Source: Thermoanaerobaculia bacterium
Lineage (GTDB): Bacteria > Acidobacteriota > Thermoanaerobaculia > Gp7-AA8
Direction of reading: 5' to 3'
Assembly (NCBI GenBank): GCA_035544675.1
Contig: DATKCA010000025.1
Location: 35,776 to 99,775 of the forward strand
Length of the DNA stretch: 64,000 nucleotides
The notes below the pieces were generated by a model. It worked only from the letters and a program-made list of their open reading frames with translations, searched no databases and was not told the DNA's origin. Position numbers and translations under genes: made by a program. Position 1 is the stretch's first letter; each line of letters begins with the position of its first letter. Shown here piece by piece: positions 14,746-41,560 of this stretch.

Positions 14746-14830
14746 CCTTAGTCCTTAGGCGTTAGTCCTTAGTCCTTAGGCGTAGAGGTACGGTTCTCCT
14801 AACGCCTAAGGACTAAGGCCTAAGGACTGG
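14746..14830. repeat. REP-like intergenic hairpin built from TTAGTCC/TTAGGCG heptamers (convergent-gene spacer)
   Basis: The left arm ccttagtccttaggcgttagtccttagtccttaggcgt and right arm acgcctaaggactaaggcctaaggact are reverse complements. Overlaps the last 5 codons of the minus-strand gene. Confidence 0.7.
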
Positions 14831-15308: not shown

Positions 15309-15980
15309 TCAGTGAACGTACGAGTCGGACTCCGCAACGGCACGACGTGACTGCACGATGGAGGCGGCCAGCATGGCCCGACGGCCGATCTCTTCCCACT
15401 GCTGCGTGCGCACGAGCTCGGGAACCGCGAGCGACCCACCCAGGTTCACGGCGATGCAGCCGGAGTCGAGATAGGCGTCGATCATGTCCAGGGGAACCGG
15501 TCCGCCGGCAAGCATCAGCACGTCGCGGATCGGCCCGCGAATGGTGCGGATGTAATCGGGGCCGCCGAGGTGCTGGGCCGGATAGATCTTGACGATGTCC
15601 GCGCCGGCTTCCCATGCCCTTATGATCTCGGTCGGTGTGGAGGCACCGGCGATGGAGAGCAGATCGTTCTCCACCGCGTACTCGATGACGCGTACGTCCG
15701 TGTGCGGCGAAACGATCACTTGCGCTCCGGCGCGGCGGGCCACGGCGGCGTCGTTGGAGTCGCGGACGGTGCCGGCGGCCAACACGATGTCGCTGTATTT
15801 CTGGCTGAGCGAAGCGATCAGGTCGATGGCGTCGGGCGTGGTCATGGTGATCTCCACGATCTTCACCCCGTTCCGCGCATAAGCCTCGGCCACGGCGTGA
15901 GCGGCCTCACGGGAATCCTCCCGGACCACACCGATGATCTGCTCTTTACTGACCTTCTCCAGAAGCTCTTTTCGCGACAT
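15309..15980 (-). CDS. eda: KDPG/KHG aldolase
   Basis: TIM-barrel Eda family (GVKIVEITMTTPDA...AGTV...GAQVIVSPH...IKIYPA). Start at MSRKELLEK. Confidence 0.85.
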   Translation of the reverse strand: MSRKELLEKVSKEQIIGVVREDSREAAHAVAEAYARNGVKIVEITMTTPDAIDLIASLSQKYSDIVLAAGTVRDSNDAAVARRAGAQVIVSPHTDVRVIEYAVENDLLSIAGASTPTEIIRAWEAGADIVKIYPAQHLGGPDYIRTIRGPIRDVLMLAGGPVPLDMIDAYLDSGCIAVNLGGSLAVPELVRTQQWEEIGRRAMLAASIVQSRRAVAESDSYVH

Positions 15981-19951: not shown

Positions 19952-20036
19952 TCGTTAGGCGTTAGTCGTTAGGCGTTAGGAAAGCTGTCGCGCGAAGTTC
20001 CTAAGGACTAAGGACTAAGGACTAAGGCCTGAAGTA
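19952..20036. repeat. REP-like element: TTAGGCG-type heptamer array opposed to CTAAGGA array (imperfect hairpin)
   Basis: tcgttaggcgttagtcgttaggcgttagg ...loop... cctaaggactaaggactaaggactaaggcc fills the entire bshB-bshA spacer. Confidence 0.65.
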
Positions 20037-27247: not shown

Positions 27248-27264
27248 AGTCCGCAATGGAATGG

Positions 27265-27297
27265 GAGCGGCGGTGAGGACACCGCCGCTCCATTTCT
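27265..27297 (+). terminator. intrinsic terminator after the OMP gene
   Basis: ggagcggcgg-tgaggaca-ccgccgctcc, a 10-bp GC stem followed by ATTTCTT. Confidence 0.6.
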
Positions 27298-27317: not shown

Positions 27318-28523
27318 ATGGAGTTCGACATCTTCTTCTCCATCTGCCAGACCGAGGTGAACGGCTACCTGCCGAGCGAGCGGGTCATGTTCGAGAACTT
27401 CTTCGAGCAGGTGGAACTTGCGGACCAGCTTGGTTTCAATACGGCGTGGGTCGCCGAGAGCCATCTCTCCACCGAGGTGCAGAAGACCAATCCCGGAGCA
27501 GTCATCCCGCACTTCGTGGGCGAGATCGGATTGAACACCGACATCCTCCAGCTCGCGCATCGGGTGTTCGCGCGGACGAGCGGCCTCGGCATCGGCTCGG
27601 CGATCATGAACATCCTCTGCAACGGCGGCCCGATCGCCGCGGCGGAGCGGGTCAAGACGTTCCTGGCGCTGCACGGTCTCGATCCGGAAGAGAAACGCAC
27701 GCTGACGGTCGGCTTCGCATCGGGCCGCTTCCCTTTCATCAACGTGCCGTACGGCATCGTCCCGCGCAGTCCCCTGGAGACCGCGGCGTGGCCTGTCGTG
27801 AAGAACCGGATCTTCGAAGAAGCCACGGAGATCTTTCTAAGGCTGCTGAAAGGGGAGACCCTGAGCTCGGACGACGTGGCGCGGCGGATACTGCGCCGCG
27901 CCGACTTCCGCTCCGACGCCGACTGGCAGCGGGTGGTCGAGGCATATGGGACGGAAGCCGCCGAGATCGTGCTGGAGCCGCGCTGGCGGTTCCCGAATCT
28001 CAAGATCGTGCCGCAGGAGCCGCGCATGGAGCTGCTGAGGCTCTCGATCGGCTCGCACGATCCGGCCACGCAGATCTTCGCGAACACTCTCATGCCCGTC
28101 GGCGTCTTCAACCTGTCGATCACGCCGGGCGACGAGATCGAGAAGACCAACGAGCGCATGCGCACGCACTACCATCCCGGCGGCGGGGGATGGCATCGCC
28201 GGCTGATGCCGCGCACCGTCCTCTGCTTCATCAACGACGATGCCGCCGCGGCCGCCGGAGAGGCCCGCCAGGCGTTGTCGAACTACTGGCGCGCTCTGGA
28301 GGGGACGCTGGACGAGGAGAAGGTGCGGCGGGCCACGAACAACGCTCTGGTCGGCGATGCCGCGGCCATCCTGGCCCAGATGGAGCAGCGGTTTGACCCC
28401 GAAGACCGGCTGATGCTCTGGTTCGACTTCAACAATCACGACTCGAAACGCGTGATGCGCAACATGGAGGCCTTCATGACCCGCGTCGCTCCGCGCTTCG
28501 CATCGATGGGAATCGCCCGGTGA
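27318..28523 (+). CDS. LLM-class (luciferase-like) flavin-dependent oxidoreductase
   Basis: MEFDIFFSICQ... TIM-barrel LLM family. Start placed after the terminator hairpin. The ORF track's upstream extension is rejected. Confidence 0.78.
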   Translation: MEFDIFFSICQTEVNGYLPSERVMFENFFEQVELADQLGFNTAWVAESHLSTEVQKTNPGAVIPHFVGEIGLNTDILQLAHRVFARTSGLGIGSAIMNILCNGGPIAAAERVKTFLALHGLDPEEKRTLTVGFASGRFPFINVPYGIVPRSPLETAAWPVVKNRIFEEATEIFLRLLKGETLSSDDVARRILRRADFRSDADWQRVVEAYGTEAAEIVLEPRWRFPNLKIVPQEPRMELLRLSIGSHDPATQIFANTLMPVGVFNLSITPGDEIEKTNERMRTHYHPGGGGWHRRLMPRTVLCFINDDAAAAAGEARQALSNYWRALEGTLDEEKVRRATNNALVGDAAAILAQMEQRFDPEDRLMLWFDFNNHDSKRVMRNMEAFMTRVAPRFASMGIAR

Positions 28524-29656
28524 TGGCGTTCGACGAGCACCTTCCCGTCAACTTCGCCCGGGCCATGCCGAACTGGCAGCCGCTCGTCGAGTACCGGCGC
28601 AACGGCGTCGCCGAGAACACCGTGCACGGCGCCGTGTCGTGGGTCTCCGGCCGCAACGTCATCTACTCGTTCGGCGGAAACGTCGAGGTCTACGGCCGCT
28701 CCATGGTCAAGCCGATCATGATGAAGGTGTTCCGCGGCGAGTTCGCCTCCGCGCTCTCGCCGGAACAGCAGGCCATCTCCGTCGCCTCCCACAACGGCGA
28801 TACCGAGCACGTCCGCGTGGCGCGCTCCATCCTCATGGAGGGCGAGTGGGGACTCATGCAGGCGCCGCACGACGTTCCACTCGTGCAGTTCGGCCGGCAG
28901 GTGCGGCGTCCGCGCCGCTGGTACCACTGCTGCTCGGGCGAGCACGCCGCGATTCTGAGAGGCTGCAAGCTGAAAGGATGGTCGAGGGTCGGCTACGTCT
29001 GGCCTCATCACCCGTTCTTCCAGGAGTACATGGCCTACATCCAGGGCGTGCTCGGAGACGGATGGAAGCCGGGACGCATCGCCAAGGACGGATGCGGGCT
29101 CCCGACGGTGAGCATGACGGTCACGGACCTGGCCAGGCTGTTTGCGAACCTCGTCACCGAGAAGAGTGGCGACTGGATCTGGCGCGCCATGGCCGAGCAT
29201 CCCGATCTGATCGGAGGATTCAACCGGCTGGACTCGACGATCCTCAAGGCCTGTCACGGCCGCGTCATCGCCAAGGAAGGCGCGGACGGACTCCTCGGCC
29301 TGGCCATCGAGCACCCTCAGTATCCGGAGGGGCTGGGCGTCGTGGTGAAGGTCGCGCACGGCTGGAATCCGCAGGCCACCTGGTACATCGCCCGCTACAT
29401 CCTCGGCGTCCTCGGATTCGAGTTCCGGAATCCGTACAAGCTGCGCCGCCAGAAGGCCTTCATCGTGCCGGAGGTGATCCCGCCGGACCTCCGCGACCGA
29501 ATGACCGGGATCGTGCCGTGGGACTCGTGGGATCCGGATATCGATCGCTGGGAGTTCGAGCCGGAGGAGTACGTCGCCAGCGGTCATTCCGGGCGCAGCG
29601 GGAGATCCGGGGGAGGGGCGGTCCCCGAGTTTCCTGCGTCGCTACGGTCGGGATGA
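28520..29656 (+). CDS. asparaginase-II family (PF06089-like) protein
   Basis: RSMVKPIM, SHNGDTEHV, CSGEHAAIL, GCGLPTV and AKEGADGL match the Rhizobium-type asparaginase II family. GTGA/ATGA overlap with LLM. Confidence 0.55.
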   Translation: MMAFDEHLPVNFARAMPNWQPLVEYRRNGVAENTVHGAVSWVSGRNVIYSFGGNVEVYGRSMVKPIMMKVFRGEFASALSPEQQAISVASHNGDTEHVRVARSILMEGEWGLMQAPHDVPLVQFGRQVRRPRRWYHCCSGEHAAILRGCKLKGWSRVGYVWPHHPFFQEYMAYIQGVLGDGWKPGRIAKDGCGLPTVSMTVTDLARLFANLVTEKSGDWIWRAMAEHPDLIGGFNRLDSTILKACHGRVIAKEGADGLLGLAIEHPQYPEGLGVVVKVAHGWNPQATWYIARYILGVLGFEFRNPYKLRRQKAFIVPEVIPPDLRDRMTGIVPWDSWDPDIDRWEFEPEEYVASGHSGRSGRSGGGAVPEFPASLRSG

Positions 29657-31089
29657 CCATGAAGACACTGCACAACTTCGTCGACGGCGAGCTCGTGCCG
29701 CCGGTCTCCGGCGCGTATATCGACGACGTCGGTCCGGCCACCGGCGACGTGATCGCGCACGTTCCCGACAGCGATGCTGCAGATGTCGATCGAGCTGTGG
29801 AGGCGGCACGGCGGGCATTCCCGGCCTGGTCCGGCACGCCGGCCGCGGAGCGCTCGCGGCTGCTCCTGAAGCTCGCTGATCTGGTCGAGCGCGACTTCGA
29901 CGAGCTGGCGCGCTGCGAGAGTCTGGACAACGGCAAGACCGTGGCGCTGGCGCGACGCATGGACATCCCGCGCGCCATCGCGAACTTCCGCTTTTTCGCC
30001 ACGGCCATCCTGCACGAGGCGTCCGCGGCCCATCACACCGACGGCGTCGCCCTCAACTACACGCTGCGGCGCCCTCTCGGTGTGGCAGGGCTCATCTCGC
30101 CCTGGAATCTCCCGTTGTATCTGCTGTCGTGGAAAATCGCGCCTGCCATTGCGGCAGGCAACTCGTGTGTGGCCAAGCCTTCGGAGCTGACGCCTCTCAC
30201 CGCGGACAGGCTCGCGGCGCTGTCGGTCGAGGCTGGGATTCCCCGCGGCGTCATCAACATCGTTCATGGCTACGGGGCGAAAGCCGGCGCCGCGATCACC
30301 GCGCATCGTGACGTGCCGATGATCTCGTTCACCGGCGGCACGGAGACGGGAGCGAAAGTGGCGATGTCCGCGGCCCCGCACTTCAAGAAAGTCTCGCTCG
30401 AGCTGGGCGGCAAGAATCCGAACATCGTCTTTGCGGACGCGGACCTGGAGCAGGCCGTGACCACGTCGATCCAGTCGAGCTTCGCGAACCAGGGGGAGAT
30501 CTGTCTCTGCGGATCGCGGATCTTCGTGGAGCGCGCCGCGTACGACACGTTCCTGGAGCGTTTTGTCGCCGCGGCGAAGAGGCTTCGCATCGGTGACCCG
30601 GCCGACGAGACGACTGACGTCGGTGCGCTCATCAGCGAGTCGCACCTCGAGAAGGTGATGCGTTACGTCGAGCTGGCCAGAAGCGAGGGCGGCCGGATCG
30701 TCACAGGCGGCCGCCGCGTGCCGCGGCCCGGCTTCTTCCTCGAGCCCGCGGTGATCACCGGTCTGGACTGCACCTGCCGCGTGCTGCAGGAGGAGATCTT
30801 CGGTCCGGTGGTCACGATCACTCCGTTCGACTCGGAAGAACAGGCGGTGGCCTTCGCAAACTCGACGAGGTACGGACTCTCGGCGTCGCTCTGGACGCGC
30901 GATCTCCAGCGGGCGCACCGCGTGGCCGCCGCCATCGAGAGCGGTACTGTGTGGGTGAACTGCTGGCTCCTGCGAGACCTGCGGGTGCCGTTCGGAGGGA
31001 TGAAGGAGAGCGGCGTGGGCCGCGAGGGCGGCTTCGAAAGCCTGAATTTCTTCACCGAGGCGAAGAACGTCTGCGTGAAGCTCGCTTGA
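29653..31089 (+). CDS. NAD(P)-dependent aldehyde dehydrogenase (2-amino/2-hydroxymuconic semialdehyde dehydrogenase-like)
   Basis: ALDH catalytic region (CLCGSRIFVE with catalytic Cys) and GxGxxG NAD(P)-binding. ATGA overlap with the preceding gene. Confidence 0.88.
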   Translation: MTMKTLHNFVDGELVPPVSGAYIDDVGPATGDVIAHVPDSDAADVDRAVEAARRAFPAWSGTPAAERSRLLLKLADLVERDFDELARCESLDNGKTVALARRMDIPRAIANFRFFATAILHEASAAHHTDGVALNYTLRRPLGVAGLISPWNLPLYLLSWKIAPAIAAGNSCVAKPSELTPLTADRLAALSVEAGIPRGVINIVHGYGAKAGAAITAHRDVPMISFTGGTETGAKVAMSAAPHFKKVSLELGGKNPNIVFADADLEQAVTTSIQSSFANQGEICLCGSRIFVERAAYDTFLERFVAAAKRLRIGDPADETTDVGALISESHLEKVMRYVELARSEGGRIVTGGRRVPRPGFFLEPAVITGLDCTCRVLQEEIFGPVVTITPFDSEEQAVAFANSTRYGLSASLWTRDLQRAHRVAAAIESGTVWVNCWLLRDLRVPFGGMKESGVGREGGFESLNFFTEAKNVCVKLA

Positions 31090-32046
<957 letters not shown>

Positions 32047-32052
32047 TCAACC

Positions 32053-33414
32053 ATGATCCAGAAAGCGTACATAGTCCCCGGCCAGCCCCACATCCTCCTC
32101 GGCGCAGACCGGAATGCCGGGTGGGGAGCGCTGCGGCGTGCCTACGAGGCCGTCGGGCGCGAGATCGAGAAGAGCGACGCGGAGCTGCTCCTCGTCTATT
32201 CGACCCAGTGGTTCTCGGTCATCGGGCACCTCATGCAGGTCGATCCGCGTCCGCAATGGGTGCTCGTCGATCAGAACTGGTATGAGCTGGGAGAGATCCC
32301 GTACGAGTTCCGCATCGACCCGGAGTTCGGAAAGCTGTACTGCAGGATCACCCGGGAGAACGGCATGCAGGCATCGACGGTGAGCTATCGCGGCTTTCCG
32401 ATCGACACCGGGACGGTCGTCGCGCTCAAGCTGCTGAACCCGAACAACCGCATCCCGGCATCGATCGTCTCCTGCAACATCTACGCGGAGCGCGAAGAGA
32501 CCCGCGCCCTCGGCTTCGCGGCGCGCGCGGCCATCGAGCAGTCCGGCAGGAAGACGATCGTGGTCTGCGTGACGAATCTGTCGAACCGCTACGAGGTCGC
32601 GGAGATCGACGTGGCCCGCGACCGCATCTCGTCGGCCAAGGACGACGAGTGGAACCGCAAGATCCTGGAGATGCTCGGTGAAGGGCGGCTGGAGGATGTG
32701 GCCCAGGTCGCGCGCGAGTTCGGGCGCGAGGCCAACGCGGACATGGGCTTCAAGGCGATCTGGTGGCTCGGCGCGGTGATGGGAGAGCACAACCGGTACG
32801 ACGGGAAGGTCTGGGAGTATCAGCCGGTGTGGGGAACGGGCAGCGCGATCGTCGGGCTGACCCCGTCGGCCAAGGAGCTGGACTTCGAAAAGGAGTTCGA
32901 CGAAGCGGCCGCGCCGGCTTTTGCCGCAACCGGAAGCGGAACCGGACTGGAGTCGCACAACGTGCTCGCCGAAGCCCCGCAGCGCGACGAAGGAAGCACC
33001 GCCCCGGTGGTCATCAGAAGCGAGCGCGCCCCGAAGCCGGTCGGCCCATATCCGCACGCGCGGCGTGCCGGAGGCATGCTCTTCCTGTCAGGCATCGGGC
33101 CGCGGAAGCCGGTCACCGGGGAGATTCCGGGTCTGGTGCGCGACGCGGCCGGCAACGTCACCGGCCACGACATCGAAGTGCAGACGCGCGCATGCATCGA
33201 GAACATCCGCGCCATCCTCGAGGACGCGGGAAGCTCGCTGGAGAAGGTGCTCGACGTGACCGTGTACCTCACGGACATGGACGGCGATTTTCAGCGCTTC
33301 AACGCGATCTATGCCGAGTATTTCGGCGCCGTGCAGCCGACGCGGACGACAGTGGGCGTGGACTCGCTGCCCACACCGATCGCCGTGGAGTTGAAGGTGA
33401 TCGCCACGGGGTGA
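32053..33414 (+). CDS. fusion: LigB-like dioxygenase alpha-type subunit + RidA/YjgF-family deaminase domain
   Basis: N-terminal ~290 aa are LigB-like without the full His set (alpha-like). C-terminal ~130 aa (PVGPYPHARRAGGMLFLSGIG...VDSLPTPIAVELKVIA) are RidA/YjgF/TdcF-like. Confidence 0.7.
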   Translation: MIQKAYIVPGQPHILLGADRNAGWGALRRAYEAVGREIEKSDAELLLVYSTQWFSVIGHLMQVDPRPQWVLVDQNWYELGEIPYEFRIDPEFGKLYCRITRENGMQASTVSYRGFPIDTGTVVALKLLNPNNRIPASIVSCNIYAEREETRALGFAARAAIEQSGRKTIVVCVTNLSNRYEVAEIDVARDRISSAKDDEWNRKILEMLGEGRLEDVAQVAREFGREANADMGFKAIWWLGAVMGEHNRYDGKVWEYQPVWGTGSAIVGLTPSAKELDFEKEFDEAAAPAFAATGSGTGLESHNVLAEAPQRDEGSTAPVVIRSERAPKPVGPYPHARRAGGMLFLSGIGPRKPVTGEIPGLVRDAAGNVTGHDIEVQTRACIENIRAILEDAGSSLEKVLDVTVYLTDMDGDFQRFNAIYAEYFGAVQPTRTTVGVDSLPTPIAVELKVIATG

Positions 33415-33425
33415 CCCACTAGGGA

Positions 33426-33510
33426 GCCTCTGCGTGAGCTTTGTGATCTCTGTGACTCTGTGGTTGACGTCAAACCACAGAGTCACAGAGGACGCAGAGC
33501 TTACGCAGAG
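33426..33510. repeat. nested perfect palindrome (16-bp stem, 11-nt self-complementary loop, inside an outer 14-bp inverted repeat)
   Basis: The inner stem ctctgtgactctgtgg pairs with ccacagagtcacagag around the loop ttgacgtcaaa. The outer arm cctctgcgtgagctt pairs with gagcttacgcagagg. Confidence 0.7.
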
Positions 33511-33512
33511 GT

Positions 33513-33580
33513 TCCTTAGTCCTTAGTCCTTAGAGGCCTTAGGCCTTACTTAGTCCTTAGTCCTTAGTCCTTAGTCCTCT
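33513..33580. repeat. TTAGTCC/TTAGGCC heptamer array abutting the GGDEF-EAL gene stop
   Basis: ccttagtccttagtccttagaggccttaggccttacttagtccttagtccttagtccttagtcct. Confidence 0.7.
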
Positions 33581-35615
33581 AGGCGTTGGCGGCTTTGCGC
33601 TCGATGAGGAACGACTCGAGGGCATTGGCAGGCAGCGGCGGGCTGAATAGATATCCCTGAATCACATCGCAGTGCTGCCGGCGCAAAAAGTCGAGCTGCT
33701 CTTCCGTCTCCACGCCCTCGGCCACGACCTTGAGATTCAGGCTGTGAGCCATGGAGATGACGGCGCTGACGATGGCCGCGTCGGTGGGATCGGTCGTCAC
33801 GTCGCGCACGAAGATCTGGTCGAGCTTGAGCGTGTCGATCGGAAAACGCTTCAGGTAATTGAGAGACGAGTAACCCGTCCCGAAGTCGTCCATGGAGATC
33901 CGGATCCCGAGGGCCTTGAGCTCGCGAAGCGTGTACATGGTGTTCTCGGCGTTCTGCATCGCGTTGCTCTCGGTGATCTCGACCTCCAGCGAAGAGGGAT
34001 CGATACCTGTCTCCATCACGACATTGCGGATCTGGCTGACGAGGTCCGGCTGCTGGAACTGGCGGGCCGAGAGGTTGACCGCGACCGTCAGTTCCTTGTC
34101 GATCTTCTTCTGCCAGATCTTGATCTGCCGGCAGGCCGTGTAGATCACCCACTCGCCGATGGGCACGATCAGTCCGGAGACCTCGGCCACCGAGATGAAC
34201 CGCGCCGGAGAGAGCAGCCCTTCTTCCGGATGCTGCCAGCGGATGAGGGCCTCCACGCCGATGGTGGCGTTGGTGCGCGAGTCGATCTGCGGCTGGTAGT
34301 AGAGGACGAGCTCGTTCTGGCTGAGCGCCTTGCGCAGCGAGTTCTCTTTGGCCAGGCGTTCCACGGCCCGCGCGTTCATGGCCGGAGCGTAAAGCTGGTA
34401 GTTGTCGCGACCCTGGTCCTTGGCCCGGTACATGGCCGTGTCGGCGTTTCTTACGAGCGTCTCCGGATCGAGTCCGTCGCCGGGAAAGAGGCTGACGCCG
34501 ATGCTCGTGGTGACGAAGAGCTCCTGATCGTGAATGACGAAGGGGATCTTCAGGGTCTCGATGATCTTGTGAGCGATCTTCGCGGCGTCCTCGATGTTCT
34601 CGATCCTGGGGATGAGAAGCGTGAACTCGTCGCCGCCGAAACGCGCGACGGTGTCACCCTCGCGCACGCAGCGGCGGATCCGCTCCGCGACCGATTTCAG
34701 CAGCGCGTCGCCCATGGAGTGCCCCAGGGAGTCGTTGATGTCCTTGAAGCGGTCCAGATCGAGGAAGAAGACGGCGAGCTTCTGGTTGCCGCGATTGGCC
34801 TGGGCGAGCGAGATGATCAGGCGGTCCATGAAGAGCGGCCGGTTGGGAAGACCGGTCAGGGCGTCGTGGTAGGCGAGATGCTCGATCTCGACCGCTGCCA
34901 GCTCCGCCGCCTCGCGCTCATCTTCGAGCAGGCAGGCGATCATGCCGACGCCGACGAGGGTCTGAATCAGGAGATCGATGAATCCGGAATGGGCGGCCAG
35001 TAGCTCCATGCCCCGGCCCGACAGCCAGAAGCTGCCGATGAATGCGTGCTCGAGCTGCTGCAGCGCCGTCGCGGCAAACGCGATGCTGAGGATGATGGAG
35101 CCGACGCCCGAATGCCTGCGGCGCACGCGCCACAGCACTACGGCCGCCGTGGCGAACCCCGCCGCGCCGATGATCGCGAAGGTCCCGTTGCGCGCGAAAT
35201 GCCGGGCCAGCGGCGACGAATCCGCCGTCACGAACAGCAGCGCCGTGAGCGATCCGAACACAGCAAGACCGATGAGAATCCGGCGCGACTCGACGATCCT
35301 CACCGGACGCCGGCGCGTGAACTCGTAGACGCCGAACAGGACCCAGCCGACGTAGAGGTAGCTGCCCGCCATCGCAATCGCTGCCGGGATCAGTCGCGCC
35401 GGGTGAGCCGCGGCCAGACCGGCCCCGATGGCATTCGTTCCGGAGATCGCCACCGCCAGGTGAACCATCGTGAGCGCCGCCCAGGACAGCGTCCAGTGAA
35501 GCAGGTAGGTCTTCCGGTAGGAGAGGTAGAAGCTGAGGAGCAGGCAGGCCATGACCGCCGCGCCGATCATCTGCGCGGTAAAGCTCAAGCCTGCGGCAAG
35601 CTTCAACTCAGGCAT
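33579..35615 (-). CDS. membrane-anchored GGDEF-EAL protein (diguanylate cyclase/phosphodiesterase)
   Basis: N-terminal multi-TM sensor region, then GGDEF (RFGGDEF) and EAL (EVEITES...DDFGTGYSSL) domains. Confidence 0.9.
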   Translation of the reverse strand: MPELKLAAGLSFTAQMIGAAVMACLLLSFYLSYRKTYLLHWTLSWAALTMVHLAVAISGTNAIGAGLAAAHPARLIPAAIAMAGSYLYVGWVLFGVYEFTRRRPVRIVESRRILIGLAVFGSLTALLFVTADSSPLARHFARNGTFAIIGAAGFATAAVVLWRVRRRHSGVGSIILSIAFAATALQQLEHAFIGSFWLSGRGMELLAAHSGFIDLLIQTLVGVGMIACLLEDEREAAELAAVEIEHLAYHDALTGLPNRPLFMDRLIISLAQANRGNQKLAVFFLDLDRFKDINDSLGHSMGDALLKSVAERIRRCVREGDTVARFGGDEFTLLIPRIENIEDAAKIAHKIIETLKIPFVIHDQELFVTTSIGVSLFPGDGLDPETLVRNADTAMYRAKDQGRDNYQLYAPAMNARAVERLAKENSLRKALSQNELVLYYQPQIDSRTNATIGVEALIRWQHPEEGLLSPARFISVAEVSGLIVPIGEWVIYTACRQIKIWQKKIDKELTVAVNLSARQFQQPDLVSQIRNVVMETGIDPSSLEVEITESNAMQNAENTMYTLRELKALGIRISMDDFGTGYSSLNYLKRFPIDTLKLDQIFVRDVTTDPTDAAIVSAVISMAHSLNLKVVAEGVETEEQLDFLRRQHCDVIQGYLFSPPLPANALESFLIERKAANA

Positions 35616-41410: not shown

Positions 41411-41560
41411 GTCGGTCCTTCGTCCTTCCTTCGTCCTTCGTCCTTCCTTAGTCCTTAGTCCTTAGGAGACCCGCCTAAGGCCTAACCCCCCTAAGGCCTA
41501 AGGCCTAAGGACTAAGGGCCTAACGCCTAAGGCCTAAGGCCTAAGGCCAAAGACGTAGGG
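41411..41560. repeat. large REP-like element: (TCCTTCG/TCCTTAG)n arm opposed to (CCTAAGG)n arm
   Basis: gtccttcgtccttccttcgtccttcgtccttccttagtccttagtccttagg ... cctaaggcctaaggcctaaggactaagggcctaacgcctaaggcctaaggcctaaggcc. Confidence 0.75.

Follow-up and report, generated by a model that had tools for sequence, protein, structure and literature searches.

The window, by which we mean the whole 64-kb stretch of DNA analysed here, contains a tight five-gene operon that encodes, in order, a luciferase-like monooxygenase (LLM), an asparaginase-II-like protein, an aminomuconate-semialdehyde-type dehydrogenase (ALDH), AmnB and, as the last gene, a fusion of an AmnA-type dioxygenase subunit to a RidA-family domain (amnA::rid). 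The features of the locus are as follows.

27264..27291, + strand: terminator-like hairpin, 12-bp stem with 10 GC pairs, then a T-rich tail
27318..28523, + strand: luciferase-like flavin-dependent monooxygenase (LLM), 401 aa, operon gene 1 (Pfam Bac_luciferase, 37.9 bits; cut-off 27.9)
28520..29656, + strand: Asparaginase_II-family (Rhizobium etli type) hydrolase homologue, 378 aa (PF06089, E = 8.6e-50)
29653..31089, + strand: AmnC-like (amino/hydroxy)muconic semialdehyde dehydrogenase-type ALDH, 478 aa (Pfam Aldedh, E = 3e-173)
31123..32046, + strand: amnB, catalytic beta subunit of 2-aminophenol 1,6-dioxygenase, 307 aa (PDB 3vsg_B, E = 2.8e-133)
32053..33414, + strand: amnA::rid fusion ORF, ATG start, 453 aa plus stop
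32053..32856, + strand: alpha (LigB) domain, aa 1-268, AmnA/CnbCa-type non-catalytic LigB fold
32857..33009, + strand: linker, aa 269-319, length-variable, predicted disordered, in frame in every sequence
33010..33411, + strand: Rid domain, aa 320-453, RidA-family enamine/imine deaminase domain of AmnD/AmnE type
33418..33578, no strand assigned: long hairpin and TCCTTAG heptamer array, between the fusion stop and a convergent GGDEF-EAL gene

The terminator-like hairpin sits 3' of an upstream outer-membrane protein gene and before the LLM start at 27318, and is likely the 5' boundary of the operon. LLM homologues start at this same ATG, the stop codon of the LLM gene overlaps the start of its downstream neighbour, the end of the asparaginase-II-like gene and the start of the ALDH gene share an ATGA overlap, and 6 nt separate the end of amnB from the fusion ATG. 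The probable end of the operon is the hairpin and repeat at 33418..33578, which comprises a hairpin at 33418-33520 with 47 paired bases (minimum free energy of −100.9 kcal/mol for 171 nt, z = −11.2) and a tandem heptamer array at 33513-33578 whose repeat family recurs within the window; it stands where relatives have kynB. We find by tblastn no kynB, tryptophan 2,3-dioxygenase (TDO) or FAA_hydrolase-type gene in the 64-kb window, and no 4-oxalocrotonate decarboxylase or hydratase was found there. The classical amn/cnb operon (amnBACDFEHG) has a decarboxylase, a hydratase, an aldolase and an acetaldehyde dehydrogenase, whereas the window operon is devoid of lower-pathway genes and adds the LLM and the asparaginase-II-like gene.

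AmnB also matches 8ihg_A (2.1e-125) and 7txy_B (2.4e-110) and keeps the HPPH, SPHW and SEVK motifs. The ALDH matches the 2-aminomuconate 6-semialdehyde dehydrogenases 4u3w (2.3e-136), 7bzv (1.7e-135) and 4i1w (1.7e-132), and scores 565.6 bits against TIGR03216, below the cut-off of 693. The asparaginase-II-like protein matches 8cly (1.4e-20) and 7os3 (6.6e-15) and retains the S-x-x-K motif, which aligns with theirs. The LLM returns no sequence match in the PDB at E ≤ 0.01, and its AlphaFold2 model is weak (pLDDT 66), with Foldseek hits at a target-normalised TM-score of ~0.5 and an rmsd of ~10 Å; these hits are uninformative on its chemistry because they give, at low confidence, a generic luciferase-like fold alone, a type II Baeyer-Villiger enzyme ranking 36th.

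The sequence-only reading had proposed that one 453-aa ORF carries both a LigB-like and a RidA domain, and the ORF lies exactly at 32053-33414, with a strongly coding-like GC3 of 0.88 as judged from codon-position GC. Pfam maps LigB to aa 17-261 (E = 6.2e-13, 48.9 bits; cut-off 26.3) and Ribonuc_L-PSP (PF01042) to aa 325-452 (E = 2.6e-27, 95.6 bits; cut-off 27.3), both above cut-off, and the proposed junction near nt 32950 falls within the linker (nt 32857-33009). The alpha domain matches solved alpha subunits (7txy_A, 2.9e-54 over aa 6-268; 3vsg_A, 6.9e-46; 8ihg_B, 1.2e-45) better than solved beta subunits (1.4e-25 to 1.9e-21), and alpha chains rank first in Foldseek with target-normalised TM-scores of 0.88-0.89. 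Beta-subunit residues His13, His62 and Glu251, which from knowledge of the LigB family we take to be the iron ligands, align with alpha-domain Gly10, Gln52 and Asp230, all three invariant in 87 sequences over which the domain has a mean identity of 0.79; Gly and Gln also occupy the first two ligand positions in the solved alpha subunits. On these alignments the N-terminal domain is an iron-free, non-catalytic alpha subunit of the aminophenol dioxygenase type, as had been proposed.

This locus shares with AmnBA, CnbCaCb and the ARO dioxygenase (8ihg, 3vsg-3vsj, 7txy) adjacent genes for homologous LigB-fold subunits, beta then alpha, with iron-ligand motifs in beta and Gly and Gln at those positions in alpha; relative to these systems the window beta subunit is ~70% similar (E = 1e-133) and the alpha domain is matched from end to end (E = 1e-46 to 1e-54). 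The known alpha subunits stop at 270-279 aa, whereas the window alpha domain runs on via the linker into the Rid domain. That the two are separate proteins in characterised systems also holds, with amnA and amnD encoding 270 and 145 aa (PMC3790839) and PDB chains of 271-279 and 142 aa. Known parts that are separate in those systems, an AmnA-type subunit and a RidA-family domain, are fused here in one polypeptide. Gallate dioxygenase (GalA) is another natural fusion in the LigB superfamily, of a LigB-type domain and a partner that are separate in related systems; GalA joins two subunits of a single enzyme, whereas amnA::rid joins a subunit to a different pathway enzyme. We found no description of this fusion in a literature search that was thin on subscription journals, and tandem Rid-Rid fusions are named in the Rid survey by Niehaus et al. 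2015 (PMC4433059), whose consulted passages do not mention a LigB-Rid architecture.

The C-terminal part scores as a RidA-family domain, as expected from the earlier reading, and scores 105.9 bits against NCBIfam TIGR00004 (Rid family detoxifying hydrolase), just under the cut-off of 106.25. Its closest solved structures are the RidA 2dyy (4e-29, 49% identity) and the 2-aminomuconate deaminase 6izh (4e-26, 42% identity), to which it superimposes in Foldseek with a target-normalised TM-score of 0.87 and an rmsd of 1.9. As in the RidA/YjgF/UK114 family, with which it shares the PF01042 domain, the equivalents of RidA Tyr17, Arg105 and Glu120 are kept: Tyr333, Arg431 and Glu446 align with the GPY, PARxxV and E motifs of solved RidAs and are invariant wherever sequences cover those columns. 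The domain also has an 11-12-aa loop insertion in common with 6izh, to which it aligns nearly without gaps, whereas the solved RidAs shown in the alignment (2dyy, 2csl, 2b33, 5yu2) need an 11-13-residue gap at this loop. NbaF-type deaminases, which act in the kynurenine pathway of bacteria, may be a comparable system (Colabroy & Begley 2005, cited in PMC4433059). AmnD/AmnE of Pseudomonas sp. AP-3 (6izh) likewise has the RidA fold, the extended Lp2 loop (residues 49-59 of AmnE; PMC6742747) and the operon company of AmnBA and a dehydrogenase of AmnC type. AmnE, 142 aa long, is free-standing, and two of its trimers assemble into a hexamer held by an Arg56-Met96 contact (PMC6742747), whereas the window domain is tethered and has Val at the position of Arg56, so this hexamer contact residue is not kept. 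We infer that deamination of 2-aminomuconate in this pathway falls to the Rid domain; the compound is unstable, and the authors of the AmnE study could not assay its deamination (PMC6742747).

The two domains are joined by a linker of ~50 aa in the window protein and of 19-104 aa (median 60) over 88 sequences, with a mean identity of 0.51 in 87 sequences and an in-frame GC3 of 0.78 in the window. AlphaFold2 gives pLDDT < 50 over aa 279-317 of the window protein, and the motifs EKEFDE and GxGLxxHNV are invariant among Thermoanaerobaculia. A GTG at codon 319, with AAGGAAG ahead of it, is a possible internal start for a separate Rid protein in the window; this idea was rejected because a start with a Shine-Dalgarno-like motif occurs in 11 of the 88 sequences, a rate equal to the 11% in control windows.

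The fusion, which the earlier reading had asked to be sought in relatives, is present in 87 loci from independent assemblies and at least four lineages (Thermoanaerobaculia, Bacteriovoracia, Oligoflexia and Planctomycetota), as well as in unbinned metagenome contigs; looking up the exact sequence of the window protein returned no contig. LigB and Rid lie in one frame with zero stops between them in all 88 sequences (the window plus 87 loci), a split alpha/Rid version is found in none of them, clustering at 90% identity yields at least 120 clusters with the fusion, drawn from assemblies of NCBI, ENA, JGI and Logan, and all 80 of the species genomes that were retrieved carry it, in some cases on contigs as long as 5.08 and 5.89 Mb. 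Gene tables for the NCBI MAG loci L081, L084 and L086 list a Rid gene alone (137-143 aa) with no alpha gene, as might be expected had mis-assembly or gene calling fused two separate genes; however, the DNA of L081 and L084 holds a single uninterrupted ORF and that of L086 is likewise in frame and stop-free, and an artefact would also have to contend with the agreement of independent assemblers and long-read chromosomes. In-frame fusion in 88/88 sequences, across independent assemblies and 5-Mb contigs, rules out this reading as far as sequence data can, and we attach a negligible probability to it. The natural fusion is upheld, with linkers of 19-104 aa throughout, and amnA::rid is confirmed as one real, widely conserved gene.

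Gene order around the fusion varies among relatives. In 62 Thermoanaerobaculia loci the sequence extends 3 kb or more upstream; amnB lies directly upstream of the fusion in 44 of these, and the other 18 (type B) have no amnB, ALDH, asparaginase-II-like or LLM gene upstream; in 17 of these 18 an Eda-type aldolase gene is directly upstream, and kynB is usually 3' of the fusion. Locus L079 lacks amnB between the ALDH gene and the fusion. Pairwise identity of the alpha domain is 0.85 in loci without adjacent amnB and 0.83 in the others, and this comparison reveals no relaxed selection on the alpha domain where amnB is non-adjacent. In the tree, the operon-linked arrangement is basal, and it is also the state in all other phyla. 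An AmnB protein search places Thermoanaerobaculia in one cluster of 1469 members. Downstream of the fusion, 45 of the 77 Thermoanaerobaculia loci have kynB, as do most other phyla; this 'cyclase' is a kynurenine formamidase (match to 4cob, 5e-53). The operon of L084, L087 and L088 also encodes TDO, and FAA_hydrolase genes border the cluster in L081 and L087.

We propose that amnA::rid encodes a two-job polypeptide, a dioxygenase alpha subunit and a Rid deaminase, that serves one catabolic pathway. The alpha domain would pair with catalytic AmnB to form a LigB-type 2-aminophenol 1,6-dioxygenase, the flexible ~50-aa linker would tether the Rid domain to alpha, the AmnC-like dehydrogenase encoded two genes upstream would carry out the intermediate step between ring cleavage and deamination, and the Rid domain would convert 2-aminomuconate and water to 4-oxalocrotonate and NH4+. 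The fusion is old, with the operon-linked form basal, and has been maintained in several bacterial phyla. Rid proteins are trimers or hexamers. The solved dioxygenase is an (alpha-beta)2 dimer joined via beta (PMC10470539), so the fusion should form a higher-order assembly, one that we predict to be large and to gather several enzymes around two unstable intermediates. The direct coupling of ring cleavage to deamination of its product, as proposed in the sequence-only reading, is not borne out: in the known pathway AmnC first oxidises 2-aminomuconic semialdehyde, and deamination acts on 2-aminomuconate only (PMC3790839, PMC10470539), and an AmnC/AMSDH-type gene lies two genes upstream of the fusion. 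With the dehydrogenase step in between, the fusion joins steps 1 and 3, which are non-consecutive, and simple channelling is therefore not the obvious gain; the most likely effect would be a fixed 1:1 stoichiometry and the co-localisation of these two steps around the two unstable intermediates. Related operons encode kynurenine formamidase and TDO, so in physiological terms the aminophenol probably derives from tryptophan via kynurenine and not from a xenobiotic. The earlier label of a 2-aminophenol system stands as to AmnBA/AmnD-type identity and is too narrow as to what the relatives carry. We put the probability of this model, including the assembly and the tryptophan source, at roughly 0.7; counterpoints are that the Rid domain is by sequence equally near to generic RidA (2dyy, 49%) and to AmnE (42%), that Arg56 of AmnE corresponds to Val, that the TIGR00004 score stays slightly short of its cut-off, that the fused steps are non-consecutive, that 18 of the 62 loci have none of the other operon genes upstream, and that kynB, TDO and 4-oxalocrotonate decarboxylase or hydratase genes were not found in the window.

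Direct coupling could be rescued if Rid acted on 2-aminomuconic 6-semialdehyde and hydrolysed its enamine/imine, giving 2-hydroxymuconic semialdehyde ahead of cyclisation to picolinate, with the ALDH then oxidising the hydroxy compound. A deaminase-dioxygenase fusion would make the best kinetic sense if the steps were consecutive, and 2-aminomuconic semialdehyde is the intermediate that is spontaneously lost to picolinic acid (PMC3790839), but characterised pathways deaminate 2-aminomuconate, not the semialdehyde. In NCBIfam the ALDH best matches 2-hydroxymuconic semialdehyde dehydrogenase, and among named PDB entries its top match is a hydroxymuconic semialdehyde dehydrogenase (4go3, 8e-139), although the match to AMSDH structures is nearly as good (2e-136). 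In RidA-type sites the conserved Arg binds the substrate alpha-carboxylate; both candidate substrates have one, and this residue therefore does not discriminate between them. We regard this order of steps as unlikely.

The fusion might instead have no kinetic meaning, with loss of a stop codon having merged operon neighbours that were kept together for co-expression and equal dosage, and with Rid tethered yet free-acting, possibly as a general RidA-type scavenger of reactive enamines. The long, variable (19-104 aa) and predicted disordered linker, a similarity of Rid to generic RidA that equals that to AmnE, and classical amn clusters that function with Rid genes as separate ORFs are all consistent with this, but retention of the fusion over several phyla (0/88 split), the invariance of the EKEFDE and GxGLxxHNV linker motifs in Thermoanaerobaculia, and an AmnE-type loop insertion that favours a pathway-specific over a housekeeping deaminase make it improbable. 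A further reading, in which the alpha domain acts independently of AmnB, e.g., as a ligand-binding or scaffold module for Rid or kynurenine formamidase, draws on the 18/62 loci with no nearby amnB (17 with Eda directly upstream), on equal conservation of the alpha domain there (0.85 vs 0.83) and on L079. Against it, the operon-linked form is basal and found in all other phyla, each subunit of the homologous ARO dioxygenase is insoluble if expressed alone (PMC10470539), and amnB may lie elsewhere in type B genomes; we consider this reading highly unlikely.

Returning to the two-job model, the cluster suggests a tentative extension, which we hold to be doubtful though worth setting out, namely that amnA::rid marks an undescribed, multi-phylum route of tryptophan catabolism via kynurenine and 2-aminophenol. 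In this putative chemistry, TDO would convert tryptophan to N-formylkynurenine and KynB would convert the latter to kynurenine, whose aryl ketone the LLM would then oxygenate in a Baeyer-Villiger reaction to give a beta-aspartyl 2-aminophenyl ester or, via an O-to-N acyl shift, N4-(2-hydroxyphenyl)asparagine. The asparaginase-II-like enzyme would hydrolyse this product to L-aspartate and 2-aminophenol, which AmnB/AmnA::Rid and the AmnC-like dehydrogenase would take to 4-oxalocrotonate and ammonia. Such a route has a role for every conserved gene of the cluster and dispenses with kynureninase, kynurenine 3-monooxygenase and 3-hydroxyanthranilate dioxygenase. Cross-phylum gene order, the identity of KynB, TDO in three operons and the retained S-x-x-K motif count in its favour. 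A kynurenine-to-aminophenol route was not found in the literature by a search that was thin on subscription journals.

The amnA::rid gene is a 'Rosetta stone' that ties a RidA-family domain independently to an aminophenol ring-cleavage enzyme, and so supports a pathway-specific deaminase role in a family that is hard to assign. Database names cover half of the protein, as 'Rid family hydrolase' or 'dioxygenase alpha subunit', and one source labels AmnB a tRNA-modification protein; many MAG annotations could therefore be corrected. Because the fusion couples a module that dimerises to one that trimerises, a large multi-enzyme assembly is predicted and, if formed, would be a natural test case for metabolite channelling. 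For the uncultured soil Acidobacteriota, Bdellovibrionota and Planctomycetota that carry 'pollutant-degrading' amn genes, the company of kynurenine formamidase and TDO suggests amino-acid catabolism, a role that, if true, alters how amn genes are read in metagenomic biodegradation surveys.

The fusion gene amnA::rid starts with ATG and comprises 453 codons and a stop; as in genuine genes, G and C are strongly favoured at third codon positions (GC3 of 0.88; window GC, 65%). It is the last of five genes whose ends overlap or nearly abut, with 6 nt separating the end of amnB from the fusion ATG.

The five-gene operon and its flanking elements
27264-27291, terminator-like hairpin preceding the five-gene run
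27318-28523, luciferase-like monooxygenase (LLM; Pfam Bac_luciferase)
28520-29656, Asparaginase_II-family hydrolase homologue (AsnII-like; PF06089, E = 8.6e-50; S-x-x-K motif retained)
29653-31089, aldehyde dehydrogenase (ALDH; nearest are muconic-semialdehyde dehydrogenases, AmnC and AMSDH among them, at about 1e-136)
31123-32046, amnB, catalytic beta subunit (3vsg_B, 2.8e-133)
32053-33414, plus strand, amnA::rid (Pfam and PDB matches of both halves)
within 33412-33582, hairpin with a 47-bp stem directly after the fusion gene (MFE -100.9 kcal/mol for 171 nt, z -11.2)
within 33412-33582, TCCTTAG heptamer array after that hairpin, 9.6 copies

Downstream of the hairpin and heptamer repeat lies a convergent GGDEF-EAL gene. 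The TCCTTAG array is also present at 14752-14826, 20001-20028 and 41445-41518 (11 matches versus 0 expected) and resembles a family of REP-like intergenic repeats. The AsnII-like protein retains the two Cys residues that lie in the R. etli enzyme's CSGxH and DGC motifs and carries Glu in place of the Lys of CSGKH in solved enzymes, a substitution that suggests an altered metal site; we take the roles of these residues to be those seen in ReAV structures.

Pfam places LigB at residues 17-261 (E = 6.2e-13) and Ribonuc_L-PSP at residues 325-452 (E = 2.6e-27), both above the gathering score, while the NCBIfam Rid subfamily model TIGR00004 gives 105.9 bits, just under its 106.25 cut-off. Residues 3-269 match alpha subunits of 2-aminophenol 1,6-dioxygenases in the PDB (7txy_A, 2.9e-54; 3vsg_A, 6.9e-46; 8ihg_B, 1.2e-45) clearly better than beta subunits, a ranking repeated in a structure search with the AlphaFold model (mean pLDDT 71.5), which gives target-normalised TM-scores of 0.88-0.89 to alpha chains. 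In a pairwise alignment of the window's AmnB with the alpha domain (29% identity), His13, His62 and Glu251 of AmnB, which we take from established LigB-family knowledge to be the iron ligands, align with Gly10, Gln52 and Asp230 of the fusion. These three residues are invariant across 87 of 87 aligned fusion proteins, and the same Gly and Gln occupy the first two sites in solved alpha subunits, which justifies calling the domain non-catalytic. AmnA-like LigB domains also occur at about residues 410-680 of other putative fusions (50%-identity representatives P0148, P0149 and P0151), with an N-terminal Liv-type ABC permease domain (BPD_transp_2) and, in one, a C-terminal alpha/beta hydrolase.

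The C-terminal 140 residues match RidA proteins (2dyy, 4e-29) and 6izh (4e-26), the structure of AmnE, a 2-aminomuconate deaminase from Pseudomonas sp. AP-3 (PMC6742747). Foldseek superimposes the Rid domain on 6izh with a target-normalised TM-score of 0.87, an rmsd of 1.9 Å and 42% identity, and Tyr333, Arg431 and Glu446, equivalent to the RidA Tyr/Arg/Glu, are invariant among fusion proteins. The two share an extra loop of 11-12 residues that is missing from the ordinary RidA structures aligned; AmnE assembles into hexamers through this loop, named Lp2 (residues 49-59; PMC6742747), although its contact residue Arg56 is not conserved in the fusion. The sequence-only reading, which had placed a non-catalytic LigB-like subunit and a RidA/YjgF domain in one ORF at these coordinates, is thus borne out on position and on both domains.

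Conservation is lowest in the linker (mean identity 0.51; N-domain, 0.79; Rid, 0.72), which has an in-frame GC3 of 0.78 and predicted disorder at residues 279-317 (pLDDT <50). Despite that prediction, two motifs invariant in 42 Thermoanaerobaculia sequences may be docking motifs: E-K-E-F-D-E (32887-32904, residues 279-284), also found in metagenome locus L083, and G-x-G-L-x-x-H-N-V (32938-32964, residues 296-304).

Four independent data sources yield at least 120 clusters (90% identity) with this architecture, which is also present in all 80 of the best species-level genomes among 557 confirmed matches, including contigs of 5.08 and 5.89 Mb. In the window and 87 further loci, both domains lie in the same frame with no intervening stop, separated by 19-104 residues (median 60). 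Since architecture and frame are kept across lineages, the fusion is old and spans several phyla; we regard this comparative sequence evidence as decisive for a real fusion, and the earlier proposal of a natural, non-artefactual one is confirmed by these 88 sequences. Stored gene tables of Bacteriovoracia, Oligoflexia and Planctomycetota MAGs list a short Rid gene only; the DNA of two (L081 and L084) holds a single continuous ORF, contrary to those tables, and the third (L086) is in frame without a stop in the locus survey. A free Rid protein from an internal start is unsupported by the data. Databases hold many copies of the fusion under half-correct names. Several AmnB orthologues (P0271, P0282, P0299, P0317 and others, from several phyla) are likewise named 'tRNA U-34 5-methylaminomethyl-2-thiouridine biosynthesis protein' at NCBI, probably a propagated misannotation given their identity of about 70% to an aminophenol dioxygenase beta subunit of known structure.

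The order LLM, AsnII-like, ALDH, amnB, amnA::rid recurs in other phyla at ~57-78% protein identity. A PF04199 gene named 'cyclase' usually comes next there and is clearly homologous to kynurenine formamidase (kynB; 4cob, 5e-53). Tryptophan 2,3-dioxygenase heads three of these operons (L084, L087 and L088), and a minimal unit of amnB, amnA::rid and kynB is found at 43% identity. One of the operons in other phyla is flanked by two genes of the FAA_hydrolase family, which includes 4-oxalocrotonate decarboxylase and hydratase. Within Thermoanaerobaculia, 45 of 77 loci have kynB 3' of the fusion gene; kynB was not found in the window, where the hairpin/heptamer element occupies its place. Of the 62 loci whose contigs extend 3 kb or more on the upstream side, amnB is upstream in 44 and missing there in 18, 17 of which carry a KDPG-type aldolase gene (Eda) in its stead. 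This Eda, amnA::rid, kynB arrangement (L065 9311-11982 and 16 other loci), with no amnB, ALDH, AsnII-like or LLM gene within as much as 10 kb on the upstream side, has two or three origins in a neighbour-joining tree in which the operon-linked state is basal and present in all outgroups. Because the N-domain is equally conserved with and without adjacent amnB, amnB is expected elsewhere in the genomes of amnB-less loci. In the window, an Eda homologue is encoded on the minus strand at 15312-15980.

Two insertions were seen in relatives. A predicted membrane protein of 406-447 residues with no Pfam match lies between ALDH and amnB in L003 (6138-7481) and 16 other operon-linked loci, and is absent from the window. 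A small '23S rRNA intervening sequence protein' ORF sits between operon genes in L016 (9319-9675; PF05635 match) and L079 (9530-10000), the latter flanked by inverted TTGAAAA-type repeats, with amnB absent between ALDH and the fusion.

The alpha subunit, AmnB, the AmnC-like dehydrogenase and the AmnD/AmnE-like Rid domain are co-transcribed, alpha and Rid being covalently joined. We infer that AmnB and the alpha domain would cleave an o-aminophenol to 2-aminomuconic 6-semialdehyde, which the dehydrogenase would oxidise to 2-aminomuconate, and that the tethered Rid domain would hydrolyse the latter to 4-oxalocrotonate and ammonium. Cleavage, oxidation, then deamination is the established order in the amn and cnb systems (PMC3790839, PMC10470539); the direct coupling of cleavage to deamination in the sequence-only reading omits their dehydrogenase step, and we consider it improbable that the Rid domain deaminates 2-aminomuconic semialdehyde itself, directly after cleavage. 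In solved aminophenol dioxygenases, two alpha-beta heterodimers pair via beta, with alpha peripheral (PMC10470539), and Rid proteins are trimers, AmnE a hexamer (PMC6742747). The fusion should therefore tie dioxygenase units together in a larger assembly, which would fix stoichiometry and hold the deaminase close to where two unstable intermediates arise.

Unlike a classical amn operon, the window's operon is without lower-pathway genes and carries two extra conserved genes; it is not a classical amn operon, though its parts belong to known families. The literature searched yielded no paper on the alpha::Rid architecture and none connecting amnBA with tryptophan catabolism, and the Rid family survey, in its accessible text, names Rid-Rid tandem fusions only (PMC4433059). 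From gene context, the gene content could, quite tentatively, fit an undescribed kynurenine route ending in amn steps: LLM would carry out Baeyer-Villiger oxygenation of kynurenine, the asparaginase-like enzyme would hydrolyse the resulting beta-aspartyl aryl ester or anilide to aspartate and 2-aminophenol, and the amn steps would act on the latter. This route is chemically coherent and accounts for every conserved gene; a fold search with LLM did not discriminate reaction types. The fusion is genuine and its identification correct: it joins domains of a known pathway and is conserved across several phyla, and it gains value as a marker of a possibly new tryptophan-linked aminophenol pathway.
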